A stretch of 64,000 bases of DNA from Candidatus Aenigmatarchaeota archaeon (lineage in GTDB: Archaea > Aenigmatarchaeota > Aenigmatarchaeia > QMZP01 > QMZT01): assembly GCA_026397315.1 (NCBI GenBank), contig JAPLVC010000006.1, forward strand, positions 64,001 through 128,000, read 5' to 3'. The notes under the pieces are model-generated. The model was not told where the DNA came from, made no database searches, and was given only the letters and a program-made list of their open reading frames with translations. This document shows, in pieces, positions 14,548 to 59,404 of the stretch. A program made the position numbers and the translations under genes. Position 1 is the stretch's first letter; the number at the start of each line of letters is the position of its first letter.

Positions 14548-14576
14548 TGGCGAGTTGTCCTGACAAAAAGGATCTG
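14548..14576 (+). other. 5' arm of the 23S pre-rRNA processing stem (canonical BHB), pairing with about 17684-17712
   Basis: TGGCGAGTTGTCC TGAC AAA AAGGATCTG versus CAGATCTTT GTCA AAA GGACAACTCGCCA. Confidence 0.88.
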
Positions 14577-17500
14577 CTACGTTGTGTGGTGGATGGTTTG
14601 GTTCGAGGGCCGAAGAAGGACGTGGCAAGCTGCGATATGCCGGGGGTAGACGCAAGCAGTCTTTGAACTCCGGATCTCTCAATGAGACTTCTTAACTTCG
14701 GTTGTTGGCCTTCGGGTCATCGGTGACGCCCTGAATTGAAACATCTTAGTAGGGGCAGGAAAAGAGAACAATAGTTATTCCCTTAGTAGAGGCGATTGAA
14801 AAGGGAAGAGGACAAACCGAATCTCCTGGTGAAAGCCAGGAGAGATGTGGGGTTCGGACCTGTGCTCATCCTAACTTCTAAGTCCGAAGTGATCTGGAAA
14901 GATCCACGGCAAAGGGTGATAGTCCCGTAGGAGGACGGAAGAAGGTTGATAGCGGGTATCCAGAGTACCAATGGTCGAAGATCCATTGGGAATACGGGAG
15001 CCAGTAACTCCTAATCCTAAATACACCTCGAGTCCGATAGCGCACAAGTACGGTGACGGAAAAATGAAAAGTATCCTTAATCGGAGATTAAAAGAGCCTG
15101 AAACCATGCAACTATAGGTAGACATTGCTTCTGCTTTGCAGGAGTTTTGTCGCCCGTGCGGAAACACGCGTCAAGGAGTTTATTTTTGTGGCGAGGGTAA
15201 TTCAAGTACCCATAGCGAAAGCGAGAACTGCGCAGCGGCTTCGTGCCGTCAGGCAGTCAGGTTTGAAAGAGCCTACAGTCACAAGGATAAGACCTGAAGC
15301 TAGTCGATCTAGCCCTTGGTAGGGTGAAGTCTGGCGAAAGCCAGATGGAGGCCCGGTAGAGATGCTGAGATTCAAATCGCTCACGTAACCTGGGGCTAGG
15401 AGTGAAATGCTAATCGAGATTAGCGATAGCTGGTTCCTCTCGAAATATGCCTCAGCATAGCCTGGTCGGAGATGGATGGCGGGGTATAGATACTGATTGG
15501 GCAACCAAGGACCGAAAGGTCCAGTTGTCCTGTCAAACTCGGAATCTACCATCATCGCAGAAGACTGGAGTGGGAGCGCCGGGGTAAGCTCGGTGTTCGA
15601 AAGGGCGAGAACCCAGCCTAAAATTAAGGTCCCTAAATTCAAGCTAAGTGATAAAAAGCGTCTTCAACCTTATACAATAGGGAAGTTGGCTCAGAAGCAG
15701 CCACCTTTTAAAGAGTGCGTAATAGCTCACCTATCTAGGTTGTGGGCCTTGAAAATGGACGGGACTAAGCTTGGTACCGATATTTTAGATTCCTAAAAGG
15801 AATATGGTAGAGAGGTGTCCTGCTAGGGCAGAAGTTCTCTCGTAAGAGGGAATGGACCTTGCAGGAATAAGAATCTTGATGATAGTAGCAGCAATAGTGA
15901 AGTGAGACACTTCACCACCTAAAGGGCAAGGGTTCCTCAGCAACGTTCGTCGACTGAGGGTTAGTCGGTCCTAAGGCAAGCCCCAATTGGAACTTGCCGA
16001 AAGGGAAGCAGGTTAATATTCCTGCACCATGAGAATACGAGTGGCGACACAAGTTCATTTCCTGACGCTTCTGGATAAATCGATCATTTCGGTGATTAAC
16101 CGGTTAAACCTGTGGAGTACCGTAATGGTGAGAAACAGGCCAAGCCGGCAATAGCTGACGTATGTCAGTTCGGTTGACTTCAGGAGCCCGTGAAAAGGGA
16201 AATGGAATGGATTTTTCATGTCCGTACCAAGAACCGTTACTGGTGCCCCTCGCTGAGAAGGCGAAGGTGTAATAGGAAAATTCAGGTCAAGGAATTCGGC
16301 AAAATCGCCCTGTACCTTTGGTATAAGGGGTGCCTAATCTTCTGGCTCAGCCAGAACGATTAGGTCTCAGTAACTAGTGGGTTGCGACTGTTTAACAAAA
16401 ACGTAGGGGGCTGCTAGGTGGAAACGCTTTGTATAGCTCCTGAGGCCTGCCCAGTGCCGGTGTGTTAAACTGGCTAAAACCAGCCAAGCCCCGGTAAACG
16501 GCGGCGGTAACTCTGACCGTCTTAAGGTAGCGTAATCCCTTGTCGATTAATTGTCGACCTGCATGAATGGCTTAACGACATCCCAACTGTCTTGATCTGA
16601 AGCCTAGCGAACTTAGTTGTCCAGCGAATATCCTGGAGTCCTTCAGCGGGACGAGAAGACCCCATAGAGCTTTACTGCAGTCTGTTGTTGTAGTATGCTG
16701 ATGGTCGCATAGCGTAAGTGGGAGCATCGCACTCAAGTCTTCGGGTTTGAGGAAGGCGTCAATGTAACACCACTCCACCGTCAACATATTGCTTACCTTT
16801 AGGGGGACAGCAATTGATGGGCAGTTTGGCTGGGGCGGTACGCCTCTGATAAAGGATCAGAGGCGCCCTATGGTCGGCTCATTCCGGTCAGAAATCGGAA
16901 GTAGAGTGTAAGGGCAAAAGCCGGCCTGATAGGATTCTGCAAGGCAAAGAATCCTAACGCGAAAGCGTGGCCTAGCGATCCGCTGTGTCTCTATTAGCTG
17001 AGAGCCAGCTCTGTCAGAAAAGTTACCTTGGGGGTAATGGAGTCGTGGCGCGTGAGAGTCCATAACTCATTTCTCGTTCTCGATAAGTCTGAACAAAAAA
17101 CGATACATACCTTGTGTATGTTAAAGCTTTTTGTCAGGACAAGCAGAAAGCAGAATATAATCTGTTGGCTGTTGAGTCACGTGTACCTATGCCCATTCAT
17201 TGGGCTGCAAAGGTGCGTGTGATGATGAAAAATCGAGAAGTGAGAGGTCAAATCGACCGCGCTCGTTGCTTCTCCGCCGTCGGCTCGGCTCTTCCTGGAT
17301 GTGCAGCAGCGTCCAAGGGTGGAGGTGTTCACTCATTAAAGAGTCACGCTAGCTGGGTTAAATACGGTGCGAGCCAGTATGGTCTATATCTGCTGAAGGT
17401 GTTGGTTACCTGAGGGTAGAATGCAATTAGTACGAAAGGAACACTGCGTTGTGGCCTCTGGTGTATCGGTTGTGTCTGCATTGCCGAGTAGCTACGCCGC

Positions 17501-17683
17501 TGAGGATAAAGGCTGAAAGCATCTAAGCCTGAAGCCTCTCCCGAAAATAGGTAACCGTTCATCAAACTGATACGCAAGTATCGGCGCGATGAGGAAGGTC
17601 TCGTAGACGACGAGGTTGATGGAAGCGGGGTGTAAGTACCAAGCTTAGGCGAGGTATTCAGCCCACGTTCCCCAATCACCTGA
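14577..17683 (+). rRNA. rrl: 23S rRNA, interrupted by a 188-nt intron at 17064-17251; ends approximate
   Basis: GAATTGAAACATCTTAGTA, TAGCTGGTTCCTCTCGAAAT, GACTGTTTAACAAAAAC, CTTAAGGTAGCG, GCTGAAAGCATCTAAG. Confidence 0.97.
17064..17251 (+). other. BHB-type intron in 23S rRNA helix 89 loop (E. coli-equivalent U2477/A2478), no ORF
   Basis: Removal restores GAGAGTCCAT|ATCGAC; terminal stem CTCATTTCTCG/CGAGAAGTGAG; relaxed central helix GTCC/GGTC with AT^A and AA^A bulges. Confidence 0.9.
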
Positions 17684-17853
17684 CAGATCTTTGTCAAAAG
17701 GACAACTCGCCATCATGTTTCCTCTATTTTTATTAATGGAGAACAAACATAGCGCAAGCTATATCCAGGTTTTACTTGATTTTGAGTCGGTAAAACCGAT
17801 AACCAGAGAAAGCGCGACTAACCTATAAAAAACTTTGCAGCCCAATAATAATT

Positions 17854-46621: not shown

Positions 46622-47464
46622 TTAAACGAATAAAAATATAAGATCTCCACAGAATATCGTTATGACTATGGTGATTACGAATACGGGGGCGAATCTCACG
46701 CCTTCCTTTATCCACACGTGCTTGCTTTTCTTCCTGAGCGCGGCTATATCCTTTTTGTTCAGGCCTTTCCATCTCCCGTCAAGCGCCACGTCGCCTTCCC
46801 TGAGTTCGGAAGTCCTGACTTTTTTCTTGAAAAGGTGCTTCTCGACGACCTTTGCGTAGTATGAGAACAGCAGCACGAACGTGAGCAGGAAAGGCAGGAA
46901 TATGAACTGGGCCATGCTGACAGGGTTTGCGCTTGCGGAAGGCATTGTTGTCATGAAGAAAGCGAAGGACCACGAGAACACGAAGAAAAACGCCACCATT
47001 GATATTAGCTTTATTTTATGTTCCTTGAGATGCTGCACGTATTTGCTATTGACGGACCTGTGCCTCAGGCCCAGGTAAACGGAATATGCTATAAGATATA
47101 CAAGTGAGACCAGCAGGAAGTTGAAAAGCATCGCTAGCGGGAACGGGAGCGCGGTAGCGACGCCGAATTCCAGCTGCTCCGGCAGAAGGAAGCCCATTGC
47201 CCCGAGCAGCCATGCGTCACCGTCGCCCCATTGCCTGGCGAAATACAACAAAAGGCCTATCGCTAGAAACGCGAGGCCTATGAATATCGAGCTAGTCAGT
47301 ATCATCCAGTCTCCCGTAACGAAAGAGAACACACTCCTCACACACAGAGACAATATTATTATAGAATATGGTAGCCAGTCCGGGAACTCTGTCGTCTTTA
47401 AATCCCAGTAGGCTCCTAGGCCGAAGCCCGCCAGGCCTATCGCCAAAAGTATAATGTCGAGCAT
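46622..47464 (-). CDS. A24 family prepilin/prearchaellin peptidase
   Basis: WDLKTTEFPD, WGDGDAWLL, EGVRFAPVF. Confidence 0.88.
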   Translation of the reverse strand: MLDIILLAIGLAGFGLGAYWDLKTTEFPDWLPYSIIILSLCVRSVFSFVTGDWMILTSSIFIGLAFLAIGLLLYFARQWGDGDAWLLGAMGFLLPEQLEFGVATALPFPLAMLFNFLLVSLVYLIAYSVYLGLRHRSVNSKYVQHLKEHKIKLISMVAFFFVFSWSFAFFMTTMPSASANPVSMAQFIFLPFLLTFVLLFSYYAKVVEKHLFKKKVRTSELREGDVALDGRWKGLNKKDIAALRKKSKHVWIKEGVRFAPVFVITIVITIFCGDLIFLFV

Positions 47465-47530
47465 AATAATGTTACCGTGTTTTTGATAAACCTTTTATTA
47501 CGTTTTTCGCTAAAGCCCTTTTAAGACTCG

Positions 47531-47563
47531 TTTTCTGCTTAAGCTCTTTCCTAAAGAGCTTAA
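47531..47563 (-). repeat. Truncated copy of the palindromic element, immediately 3' of tRNA-Pro
   Basis: Minus strand TTAAGCTCTTTAGGAAAGAGCTTAAGCAGAAAA. Confidence 0.85.
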
Positions 47564-47723
47564 TGGGGTCGCTGAGATTCGAACTCAGGTCGCAGGCTCC
47601 CGAAGCCTGAATGCTAAACCATTGCAGAGCCCTTTTCACTTGGAAGCGAAAGCAGCGAAGCGGATTGAAGCTCCTTTCTGCTTAAGCTCTTTCTTGAAAA
47701 GAGCTTAGCTACACCACGACCCC
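47564..47723 (-). tRNA. tRNA-Pro(CGG) with an 85-nt D-loop intron (47622-47706, position about 17/17a)
   Basis: Spliced GGGGTCG TG GTGT AGCT|TGGTTTA GCAT T CAGGC TTCGGGA GCCTG CGAC CTGAG TTCGAAT CTCAG CGACCCC A; helix GTAG/CTGC, bulges CT^A and AA^T, stem AGCTCTTTTCA/TGAAAAGGGCT. Confidence 0.9.
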
Positions 47724-47797
47724 GTGGCGTCGTCGCGCCTATTGATAGATAGTATTGCAATTATAATATTAAAAATAAAAGGGGAAGAAAAGGCGCT

Positions 47798-49981
47798 TTA
47801 CTGGTCTGTTATGCCCTTTCTCTGCTTTATCTGGCCTATGACCCTGGGTTCGAGTTCCCTGGGCATCGGCTCGTAGATGACGTCTATGAGCCAGTAGAAG
47901 CCCTTGCCGCCTGTCGATGACTTGAGGGCGGAGTTGAAGCCGAACATCTCGGCGACGGGCAGTTTTGCGGTAATCGTAGTCGTGCCGCGTTCCTCGCTCA
48001 TCTCCAGTATCTGGCCTCTCCTGTTCTGGACCTCTTTCATGGCGCCGCTCATCTGCTCCGAAGGGACGTCTATCCTGATCACCTGCTTGGGCTCAAGTAT
48101 GAAAGCCTTCGCAGCGATCATAGATTCTCTTACGGCAGCTCTGACAGCGGGTATGACCTGCGCCGGGCCTCTGTGTATGGCGTCCTCGTGAAGCTTCGCG
48201 TCGACAATTTTTATCTTCACTGCATCGCACGGCTCCTTCGCCAGCGGGCCCTCGTCCATCGCTTCCACAAACGACTCCTTGAGCATTTCCATGACTTCAA
48301 GGATCGAGTGGACTCCTCGCGTCGCGTCCACGAACATGTTCCTGTTGTGTATGAGCTTGATTTTCTTCGCCTCGTCGCGGTCGAAGCCGAGCTTTATGAG
48401 CTTGTCTTGGATTTCGACTTCCTTTTTCTTGAGTTCCAGCGTCGAGGGAATGTCGCCTCTCACCATGGCCTCGTGTATCTTCGGGTCGAGCGGCTCTGCC
48501 ATGATATAGAACCTGTTGTGCTTGTTGGGCGATTTGCCTTCGACTGCCTCAGGGCTTGTGCTCCTCACGGATTCCCTGTAAATGACGATGGGCGGAGATA
48601 CATCGACTTCTATTTCCGCGTCCTTTAGCGGGCGCTCTATCTTCGCGTCAATGTGCAGTTCGCCCAGGCCGGAAACGAGATATTCGCCCGTCTCCTCGTT
48701 AATCTTGACCCTGAGCGTCGGGTCTTCTTTGGCGACTCGTCTCAGGAAATCGATGAGCTTTGTCAGTTGCTGCGGCTTCTTGGGTTCTATCGCCTTGACC
48801 ACGACCGGTTCGAAGATGTGCGTTATCGACTCGAAACCTGGTATGGGGTTTTCAGGGTCGCAGATGGTTTCACCGGAGAACGAGTCTTTCAGGCCGACTA
48901 TGCCGACGATGTTGCCTGCGTCGACCTCTTCCATGCTTATTCTCTGCGCTCCCTTGTAAACGGAAACCTGCTGGACCTTCTGCGACTTTGCCATGCCGAC
49001 CAGATAAACTTCCTGGCCGACTTTCATCTTGCCCGAGAAAATCCTGACAGTTGCGACGTAGCCTGCATGCGGGTCCGGGTAGAGTTTCGTCACGATAGCC
49101 GCGAGCTTGCCGTTCGGGTTGCAGCTTGCCATGTCTTTCCCTACCTCGGAATCCTTCTCGCCCGGCCATATCCTCGGTATCCTGTATTTCTGCGCGTTGA
49201 GCGGGTTGGGCAGGTGCGTGATTATCATGTCAAGGACAATGCTGTGGAGCGGGGCGAGCTTCGCCAGCTCCTTCTCGCCTTCGGGACCCTTTTCAGTGTA
49301 GTCGATTATGTCCTTGAAAGTCATCTTGGACTTCATCATGAACGGGACGGAAATCGCCCAGTTCTTGACAGCCGAACCGAAGGCGACGCTGCCGTCGTTG
49401 ACGTTCGTGACGCACTTGTCGGCGAACTCTTTCTCCGCGTATTTCTGGATGAGAGCATTGACGTCAGTGATTATTTTTTTGAACCTCTCCTGCATCTGCT
49501 CTGGCGTGAGCTTGAGCTCTTTTATCAGCCTGTCGACTTTGTTGATGAAAAGAACCGGTTTTACGCGTTCTCTAAGCGCCTGGCGGATGACAGTCTCCGT
49601 CTGCGGCATCACGGCCTCGACTGCGTCTATAATCACTATTACGCCGTCGACCGCGCGCATCGCTCTCGTCACGTCGCCGCCGAAGTCCACGTGACCCGGA
49701 GTATCTATAAGGTTAATGAGGTAGTTTTCGCCGTGGAACTCGTGAACCATGCTTGCGTTGGCAGCGAATATCGTAATGCCACGCTCCTGTTCCTGCTCGT
49801 CGAAGTCCATAGCCAGCTGCTTGCCTGCAAGTTCCTGCGATATCATGCCCGCGCCTGCGAGCAGGTTGTCGGAGAACGTAGTCTTGCCGTGGTCTATGTG
49901 GGCGACGATGCCTATGTTGCGGATTTTTTCCGGCTTAAGCATAAGGTCCCTGATTGTTGAAGTCACATCTTTTGTTGCCAT
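47798..49981 (-). CDS. fusA: Elongation factor 2
   Basis: AHIDHGKTT, RGITI, DTPGHVDF, NKVD, diphthamide loop HEDAIHRG. Confidence 0.98.
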   Translation of the reverse strand: MATKDVTSTIRDLMLKPEKIRNIGIVAHIDHGKTTFSDNLLAGAGMISQELAGKQLAMDFDEQEQERGITIFAANASMVHEFHGENYLINLIDTPGHVDFGGDVTRAMRAVDGVIVIIDAVEAVMPQTETVIRQALRERVKPVLFINKVDRLIKELKLTPEQMQERFKKIITDVNALIQKYAEKEFADKCVTNVNDGSVAFGSAVKNWAISVPFMMKSKMTFKDIIDYTEKGPEGEKELAKLAPLHSIVLDMIITHLPNPLNAQKYRIPRIWPGEKDSEVGKDMASCNPNGKLAAIVTKLYPDPHAGYVATVRIFSGKMKVGQEVYLVGMAKSQKVQQVSVYKGAQRISMEEVDAGNIVGIVGLKDSFSGETICDPENPIPGFESITHIFEPVVVKAIEPKKPQQLTKLIDFLRRVAKEDPTLRVKINEETGEYLVSGLGELHIDAKIERPLKDAEIEVDVSPPIVIYRESVRSTSPEAVEGKSPNKHNRFYIMAEPLDPKIHEAMVRGDIPSTLELKKKEVEIQDKLIKLGFDRDEAKKIKLIHNRNMFVDATRGVHSILEVMEMLKESFVEAMDEGPLAKEPCDAVKIKIVDAKLHEDAIHRGPAQVIPAVRAAVRESMIAAKAFILEPKQVIRIDVPSEQMSGAMKEVQNRRGQILEMSEERGTTTITAKLPVAEMFGFNSALKSSTGGKGFYWLIDVIYEPMPRELEPRVIGQIKQRKGITDQ

Positions 49982-59184: not shown

Positions 59185-59271
59185 AAAGCGTCTCTTATTT
59201 TATTATTATCCTATATATACGGTCAATGTAATGACACTTATTTATGTTAAACTAATTTAAATATATATAGT

Positions 59272-59341
59272 AAGCTCTTTTCAGGAAAGAGCTTAAGCAG
59301 AAAGGAGCATCGCTCCACTGCGTTTCGCTCGCTTCCTGGTG
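59272..59341 (+). repeat. Free-standing copy of the ~70-nt palindromic element that forms the tRNA-Pro intron
   Basis: AAGCTCTTTTCAGGAAAGAGCTTAAGCAGAAAGGAGC...CGCTTCC; 58/70 ungapped identity to the intron by manual count. Confidence 0.88.
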
Positions 59342-59404
59342 TCCAAAATCCGTCTTAAAGGCGGTGTTGGCAAAATGGTTTAAGGAAGCCGATATATAAA
59401 CCTT

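Follow-up and report, generated by a model that had tools for sequence, protein, structure and literature searches.

A dispersed hairpin module makes up most of a tRNA-Pro intron and recurs in tRNA introns, tRNA flanks and intergenic DNA of an Aenigmatarchaeota lineage

The tRNA-Pro(CGG) gene of a Candidatus Aenigmatarchaeota genome contains an 85-nt insert, which we interpret with moderate confidence as a protein-spliced intron whose first 68 nt belong to an order-wide family of hairpin modules; these modules would be exchangeable, copy-prone intron content that is spread by host recombination or template switching. The gene lies in a stretch of 64,000 nt (the window, G000:C7:64001-128000) that is part of a genome of 1.05 Mb in seven contigs (G000). 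The genomes compared here are metagenome-assembled genomes (MAGs) with a completeness of 77-96%.

The tRNA-Pro(CGG) gene spans 47564-47723 on the minus strand and is the sole gene for this isoacceptor in the genome. Removal of 47622-47706 leaves a canonical 75-nt tRNA-Pro(CGG) cloverleaf (ARAGORN). With default settings ARAGORN called no tRNA anywhere in the window, the tRNA-Pro included, and Rfam detected only the 3' part of this tRNA. The intron mode of ARAGORN mis-called several genes, for example a tRNA-Glu as tRNA-Trp. For annotation this means that such intron-split tRNA genes escape standard tRNA finders. The gene and its intron were divided into the following parts.

47707..47723, minus strand: 5' exon of tRNA-Pro(CGG), positions 1-17, which gives the canonical cloverleaf together with 47564-47621 (ARAGORN)
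47564..47621, minus strand: 3' exon of tRNA-Pro(CGG), from ARAGORN on the joined exons and the Rfam tRNA match to the 3' part
47622..47706, minus strand: D-loop intron of 85 nt between positions 17 and 17a, from deletion and folding, with orthologous introns at the same site in G001-G004
47640..47707, minus strand: 68-nt module, in which an 11-bp hairpin is followed by a purine stretch and then by a variable hairpin before the terminal GCTTCC (covariance model R1, 87.7 bits)
47683-47707 and 47673-47682, minus strand: partners of the register covariation, present in all module copies
47628..47638, minus strand: intron-specific tail, which pairs with the left arm of the module (47695-47705) in an 11-bp helix beside the 5' splice bulge (fold, duplex energies)
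47624..47627, minus strand: gene-specific adaptor CUGC, forming the central helix of 4 bp with exon bases 12-15 (GUAG) (constrained fold)
47622-47623, minus strand: AA, forming the 3' bulge with the first exon U (constrained fold)

In the minimum-energy fold of the intron, the left arm of the module pairs with the tail over 11 bp and not with its own right arm. A fold constrained to contain the CUGC:GUAG helix has an energy of -66.7 kcal/mol against the minimum of -67.4 kcal/mol, a difference of 0.7, and places CU|A and AA|U in bulges, with cuts after the second bulge base on each side. The tail, CTGC and AA had been read as parts of the splice motif in the initial annotation, and the constrained fold shows the same arrangement. 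The predicted motif is a relaxed one, with an 11-bp helix, the CU|A bulge, an exon-intron helix of 4-5 bp and AA|U at the helix end; its outer exon-exon helix is weak. The insert is thus predicted to be a protein-spliced archaeal intron of the BHB type in its relaxed (hBH/BHL) form; the strict form has bulges of 3 nt on either side of a 4-bp helix. Neither a C box (RUGAUGA) nor a D box (CUGA) of a box C/D guide RNA was found within the 85-nt intron. The assembly was checked using Logan contigs: one contig of the likely source run spans 47562-48049, covering the whole tRNA-Pro gene and its intron, with zero differences. Source-run contigs end at 47557/47562, inside a 32-nt repeat, and do not bridge the join between tRNA and flank independently; we accept this join since the other copy of the 32-mer lies only inside the tRNA-Thr intron, where its continuation is confirmed by G002.

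The genome encodes one EndA protein of 395 aa (G000:C1:34559-35746, minus strand; L099:1189-2376), which is of the three-unit epsilon2 type and has a full-length match to 4FZ2 (ARMAN-2 epsilon2, E 3e-104). Relatives of G000 carry EndA at 67-95% identity. EndA of the epsilon2 type cuts non-canonical, relaxed motifs (PMC5829648, PMC3239211). As of 2018 this type was listed only from Micrarchaeota-like genomes (PMC5829648); here it is present in an Aenigmatarchaeota MAG and its relatives.

The tail and the left arm together are predicted to form a relaxed bulge-helix-bulge site for the epsilon2-type endonuclease. The duplex between left arm and tail had a median energy of -13.8 kcal/mol in 15 D-loop introns, compared to -4.1 in solo copies and -4.3 in the copies behind tRNAs (trailer copies), showing that D-loop introns have such a tail and that solo and flank copies lack it. 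Across the family the tail is restricted to introns, directly follows the module and co-varies with the type of left arm. The bases between tail and 3' splice site vary by gene, being CUGCAA in Pro and others in Glu and class II tRNAs. This gene-specific adaptor pairs with the 5' exon in the constrained Pro fold and, by reading, would do the same in Glu and class II tRNAs. The right arm and the remainder of the module are, according to the predicted structures, dispensable for splicing, since the G003 Pro intron consists of left arm, short loop and tail only.

A match between the intron and an intergenic sequence at 59272 had already been counted by hand in the initial annotation, and the recomputed counts are exactly the same: 36/37 bases are identical in the core formed by the first intron bases (47670-47706, minus strand, against 59272-59308, plus strand) and 58/70 in the ungapped comparison; 0/100 shuffles gave such a core match. 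The repeat proper is the 68-nt structured module, and a short form of it consists of the hairpin and an A-rich stretch. No Rfam family matched the module at either locus (tRNA-Pro, 59271). The covariance model R1 was built from seven copies. In an alignment of 69 distinct copies, which was fitted to this covariance model, compensatory changes on both sides were found in 9 of the 11 hairpin pairs, 98% of the cells were paired and 0/500 shuffles matched the score. A further covariation is locked in register: the G of the purine stretch behind the hairpin occupies the same position as the C of the pyrimidine run in the left arm. The agreement was 0.98 compared to 0.75 in shuffles (0/2000 reached it), with four classes of 16, 15, 7 and 7 distinct copies. 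The purine stretch is the mirror image of the right arm of the hairpin, and because the tracts are nearly symmetric it is also a near-direct partial repeat of this arm. It is therefore a possible second Watson-Crick partner for the left arm, the tail being the third. Mirror (triple-helix) and direct-repeat readings scored alike, with 5.4 and 5.5 of 8 identities, respectively, with 180/1000 shuffles as good (sliding identity, duplex energy).

BLAST against the whole G000 genome found five copies, and an exact pattern search detected the core in three genera of the family. Model R1 matched in 19/23 family genomes, with 11 matches in G000 and up to 19 in one genome. In a class sample of 151 genomes, strong matches were confined to this family and its sister families f3 and f5 of the same order (at most 25 per genome), and beyond the order only weak matches were obtained, one to three per genome. 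The number of matches thus ranges from 0 to 25 in genomes of about 1 Mb. Elsewhere the exact core was found only in uncultured archaeal MAGs, one of them from a Candidatus Aenigmatarchaeota. The introns of the G002 tRNA-Glu (L034:1536-1570) and the G001 tRNA-Pro (L024) each contain, at an identical point inside the module, a hairpin of a second family (TGACGCA ... TGCGTC, then TTCG), and members of this family make up introns of their own in G013, G009 and G006. The introns are built as mosaics from several families of blocks.

The contexts of 65 R1 matches were classified by eye.

15 copies: module starts a D-loop intron
7 copies: module starts a 37/38 intron
17 copies: module starts a T-arm intron
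7 copies: module inverted at the 3' end of a T-loop intron
6 copies: module 0-2 nt behind a tRNA 3' end
13 copies: module elsewhere (solo)

Copies in introns therefore account for 46/65, and in all 39 sense-oriented ones the first base of the module is the 5' splice junction. Altogether, 52/65 copies (80%) are located in or abut tRNA genes, and the first module base coincides with a 5' splice site or with a tRNA or rRNA 3' end in 46/65. The dispersed palindromic family that had been proposed from two loci and a flank copy is hence represented by many copies in introns, tRNA flanks and intergenic DNA. The module occurs in Pro, Glu, Thr, Val, Asp, Ser and class II tRNAs and at D-loop, 37/38 and T-arm positions. 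The 11 matches in G000 comprise four introns (Pro, Thr, Glu and a T-loop intron on C3), three trailers (Pro, Lys and Ile) and four solo copies. In other families, one long T-loop intron is a tandem array of modules and one copy lies behind an apparent 23S rRNA 3' end (G160:C41, L096:540-720), so that the module family is not restricted to tRNA genes. In G000 the unit is present at only about 5/24 tRNA 3' ends, most of the others being followed by T-runs; trailer copies are thus optional, and a general terminator or processing signal was ruled out as an explanation of the flank copies.

Some further observations were made at individual sites. The solo module at G020:C145 (L023:389-456) has one and the same 58-nt sequence, directly oriented, to its left and right, which may result from a tandem duplication or represent a very long target duplication. 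Two solo modules of different genera (G000:C1:23074-23213, L078:125-137 and 253-264; G006:C72, L058) are bracketed by the palindromic motif GAAAC-N-GTTTCA, of which G000 contains only five. Since the motif recurs beside solo copies in two genera, it is not a duplication made by insertion; possibly a protein binds to this motif beside some of the solo copies. Within the window, the 23S rRNA match at 14565-17695 has 3131 nt compared to the 2987 positions of the model, and this gene may hold an insertion or an intron.

Three features of the window belong to the flank of tRNA-Pro and to the solo locus.

47527..47563, minus strand: short-form module copy directly behind the tRNA-Pro 3' end (R1, 33.5 bits)
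47475..47526, minus strand: two decayed half-units (right arm and A-rich stretch), which fill the spacer to the ATG of the downstream ORF at 47464 (by reading)
59271..59338, plus strand: solo long-form module in AT-rich intergenic DNA, about 75 nt upstream of a small plus-strand ORF and without a tail (R1, 90 bits)

The trailer copy (47531-47563, minus strand) has its first base one position past the discriminator and agrees at 30/33 bases, with a 2-nt loop deletion. It had been described as a truncated third copy; its presence directly behind tRNA-Pro is correct, but it is a member of the short-form subfamily and not truncated. Its 32 nt are identical to the start of the tRNA-Thr(GGT) 37/38 intron (G000:C7:132781), 21 kb away. 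Half-unit arrays similar to 47475..47526 were found behind the tRNA-Pro(TGG) of G003, and the array of about 95 nt behind tRNA-Pro(CGG) is missing in G003, G002 and G004. The distance from the end of tRNA-Pro to the start of the downstream ORF (window 47464-47563) is 3 nt in G003, about 50 nt in G002 and G004, and about 100 nt in G000. As the 3-nt spacer has no room for a promoter, the arrangement in G003 suggests that the ORF is co-transcribed with tRNA-Pro and that a leaderless mRNA would be freed by tRNA processing.

The 59271 locus is filled in four of the five congeners (G000, G003, G001 and G002), and these four account for 4/13 solo copies. Contigs of related strains from two other sediment studies have 119 other bases in place of 59270-59368. 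The 11.6-kb stretch between the two copies was considered as an integrated element and rejected, as the copies are inverted and no tRNA-derived direct repeat is present. The sequence at 59272 was also considered as a leader or trailer of a split tRNA; no tRNA half was seen downstream.

To follow the intron within the genus, orthologous sites were compared. A D-loop intron is located at the same site of tRNA-Pro(CGG) in all five congeners, with the same first bases, tail and adaptor, and with the following lengths and interiors.

G003 (closest relative, EndA 95% identical to that of G000): 38 nt, consisting of left arm, short loop and tail
G002 and G004: about 74 nt, with a different inner hairpin
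G000: 85 nt
G001: 128 nt, containing a hairpin of another type plus a nested one

In related strains from two other sediment runs, 47639-47689 are skipped and a single base stands in their place, so that the intron is the short form. In G001, tRNA-Pro additionally contains a T-loop intron, and the hairpin unit of this intron recurs verbatim behind the 3' end of the tRNA. The same gene (G001:C8:3700-4300, L064) extends across a stretch of N that has identical sequence of ~55 nt at either edge; this repeat is a scaffolding artefact and no real duplication. Judged from the aligned sequences, the copy now present in the tRNA-Pro(CGG) intron did not create this intron and the slot is ancestral, since in all five species this site is occupied by an intron, with shared ends and differing interiors. 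In our preferred explanation it is the content of the tRNA-Pro(CGG) intron that moves, and the present module would be an interior that was swapped in or retained. Gain of a whole intron is seen only indirectly, in other Pro isoacceptor genes.

The tRNA-Thr(GGT) gene shows four intron combinations within the genus: no intron in G001, the D-loop intron only in G003, the 37/38 intron only in G004, where its module is of another type, and the two together in G002 and G000. Precise loss or replacement could account for most presence/absence differences within the genus. The only tRNA-Thr(GGT) gene of G000 (G000:C7:132734-132873, L011:1453-1592), 4.7 kb past the window end, was parsed by comparison with orthologues, exhaustive segment deletion with ARAGORN having given only spurious calls. 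It lacks 30 nt that are present in G002 and G003, including exon positions 22-27 (the 3' strand of the D-stem); either this gene is apparently defective or wrongly assembled, or unassembled DNA contains a second copy.

Comparison between genes and organisms gave evidence of copying. The tRNA-Pro intron is closest to the D-loop intron of the G002 tRNA-Glu (78/86 identical); its own orthologue in G001 matches at 74/85 and the solo copy at 68/86. At the corresponding site, the tRNA-Glu genes of G000 and G003 contain a short module of a different kind, combined with the same adaptor, and a Glu gene from a metagenome combines the long module with this tRNA-Glu adaptor. A module of 66 nt is identical (66/66) in the D-loops of a Pro(GGG) and a Pro(TGG) gene on two metagenome contigs, whereas the 5' exons of these two genes are identical to those of G000 at 14/17 and 15/17 positions. 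A match in the coding flank was obtained for one of the two contigs only (about 75% identical to G000). The same D-loop site is empty in the Pro(GGG) gene of G000 and in the Pro(TGG) genes of three congeners. For the solo and trailer copies, the nearest neighbours are found in introns of other genera, with identities of 0.91-0.96; for comparison, EndA of these genera is only 76-78% identical to that of G000. The stronger conservation of the module than of the adjacent exons, together with the empty sites, supports copying and would not fit slow vertical descent. Part of the cross-genus identity could be explained by strong purifying selection without transfer, because the orthologous Thr introns of G000 and G002 are 50/52 identical (96%) including a compensatory pair of changes, so that selection on the sequence contributes too.

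The explanation we prefer has a step at the RNA and a step at the DNA level. In the precursor RNA, the left arm would pair with the intron-specific tail over 11 bp and the next four intron bases with exon bases 12-15, leaving CU|A and AA|U as cleavage bulges for the epsilon2-type EndA. At the DNA level, the module would be copied by homology-driven events, either gene conversion or template switching at the palindrome, without a transposase of its own. Among the three Pro isoacceptor genes such copying could use the shared exon homology, and between any two module-bearing introns it could use the homology of the module; trailer and solo copies might be off-target products. Unrelated tRNA genes have only about 5 nt of 5' homology in common that gene conversion could use, and the trailer and solo copies require something else.

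Movement by a protein encoded elsewhere would be an alternative to host recombination: a non-autonomous DNA transposon of the MITE/REP kind, moved in trans by a hairpin-recognising transposase, which survives in or near tRNA genes only where it can be spliced. The dispersed family with its 0 to 25 matches per genome, the tandem arrays, the coexistence of empty and filled sites and the near-identical copies across genera all agree with such an element, as do the seven T-loop introns with two inverted modules, which resemble terminal inverted repeats. Inverted-repeat-like features, namely left arm and tail (11 bp) and the inverted module pairs of the T-loop introns, are needed for the splice helix as well, and solo copies do not have them. 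Five genomes of 81-91% completeness (G000, G003, G006, G009 and G013), among them the two with most matches in the family search, were screened for enzymes. The initial annotation had suggested looking for a HUH/Y1 (TnpA/RAYT) transposase with the same terminal hairpin; the Y1_Tnp (HUH) profile matched the control genomes but none of the five, and the TnpB domain reached only 17-19 bits in them, below the cut-off of 26.3. A gene-bearing version with the same ends was absent from 12 metagenome contigs containing the core, from five genome records and from viral contigs, which gave no match. Target-site duplications were found neither at the Pro flank nor at the Thr 37/38 site nor at solo copies. 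Furthermore, an element with fixed ends would not bring the gene-specific 4-nt adaptor of each intron, and 52/65 copies lie in or abut tRNA genes. We therefore regard a transposon as unlikely.

Mobility could also be apparent only, the module being a functional RNA element, such as a signal for the processing or stability of discarded RNA (introns and trailers), placed at its 5' end, or a regulatory leader, that is inherited vertically under selection. Strong covariation of the hairpin and the fixed-register covariation of left arm and purine stretch would be expected in this case, and so would the filling of the 59272 locus in 4/5 congeners, the 96% identity of orthologous Thr introns and the position of the module start at RNA cleavage sites, including one apparent 23S rRNA 3' end. 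This reading is quite unlikely, however, since the module is dispensable in the G003 intron (left arm and tail only, with splicing predicted), is found at only about 5/24 tRNA 3' ends of G000 next to mostly T-runs, differs in presence between genomes with 95% identical EndA, is more conserved than neighbouring tRNA exons, and is matched by no Rfam family. Spread at the RNA level would explain why the first module base is at a 5' splice site or at a tRNA or rRNA 3' end in 46/65 copies: excised introns, with a 5'-OH at the first base of the module, would be ligated by tRNA ligase to cleaved RNAs such as 5' exons and tRNA 3' ends, followed by reverse transcription and recombination. But RVT_1 had no match in the same five genomes, the flank copies have no encoded CCA or other marks of retro-copies, and solo copies in promoter regions do not fit, making this route highly improbable.

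Taken together, a mobile source of the intron, as initially proposed, is only partly supported. The mobility of the hairpin has support. The copy now in tRNA-Pro(CGG) did not create the intron there, whose slot is old, and no HUH transposase, TnpB above cut-off or reverse transcriptase was found in the five genomes screened, nor any target duplication at the sites compared. None of the outcomes that the initial annotation gave as refuting was observed: copies are numerous, a source-run contig agrees with the assembled gene and intron, and free-standing copies exist as well as empty or polymorphic sites in relatives, namely at Pro(GGG), Pro(TGG), Thr(GGT) and 59270-59368.

Large-scale transposition of tRNA introns has been described for Thermoproteales (Fujishima et al., 2010, as cited in PMC4090602 and bioRxiv 10.64898/2026.10.13.758758), where these two sources give the mechanism as unknown and presume it to act at the DNA level. 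As summarized there, the transposed introns resemble the module in that the same sequence occurs in different tRNAs and positions of hosts with broad-specificity endonucleases. The similarity of the introns beyond that of their host genes (66/66 against 14/17 and 15/17 in exons) is likewise found here. Compared to the Thermoproteales case as it is cited in these sources, the lineage is a DPANN one (Aenigmatarchaeota MAGs), the shared unit is a 5'-end module with gene-specific adaptors and not the whole intron, copies are found also behind tRNA and rRNA 3' ends and in intergenic DNA, and modules can exceed the adjacent exons in conservation, with identity across genera. On the basis of these comparisons, DPANN lineage, modular build, trailer and solo copies and cross-genus identity would be the new aspects. 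ARMAN-2/Ca. Micrarchaeum (PMC3239211, PMC3488258; PDB 4FZ2) is similar in having a three-unit EndA of the same length with a full-length match, and D-loop and T-loop introns with relaxed motifs; unlike here, no repeated module family or free-standing copies are described there (PMC3239211, PMC3488258).

With MITEs, REP/RAYT and IS200/IS605-derived repeats the module shares its short, palindromic and dispersed nature, the variable copy number and the occasional inverted pairs or arrays. It differs from them in the lack of a detected cognate transposase and of target duplications, in its extreme bias to sites of tRNA processing and in the context-specific tail and adaptors. For Caldiarchaeum a model has been put forward in which tRNA-Thr(GGU) gained its intron through an integrating element (PMC3293823). 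There, too, presence and absence differ between very close genomes and recombination is invoked. That model needs an integrase-bearing element with an att site containing the intron, whereas no integrase, direct tRNA repeat or cargo was seen around the sites compared here.

A bolder version of our explanation holds that the module itself is a self-propagating, protein-free intron seed, which creates new tRNA introns and trailers across species through the recombination or the splicing and ligation enzymes of the host, solo and trailer copies being its reservoir. We consider this possible but doubtful; if true, a mechanism by which archaea gain tRNA introns would be visible for the first time. 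A 2014 review called it unknown how introns transpose (PMC4090602), and for the spread of archaeal tRNA introns to new sites the module provides a concrete, not yet mechanistic, handle. One genus and its sediment relatives offer filled and empty sites, near-identical donors, a separable module, tail and 4-nt adaptor, and copies outside genes. These features make the arrival of introns testable in this lineage by comparative genomics, metatranscriptomics and in vitro cleavage with one recombinant enzyme.
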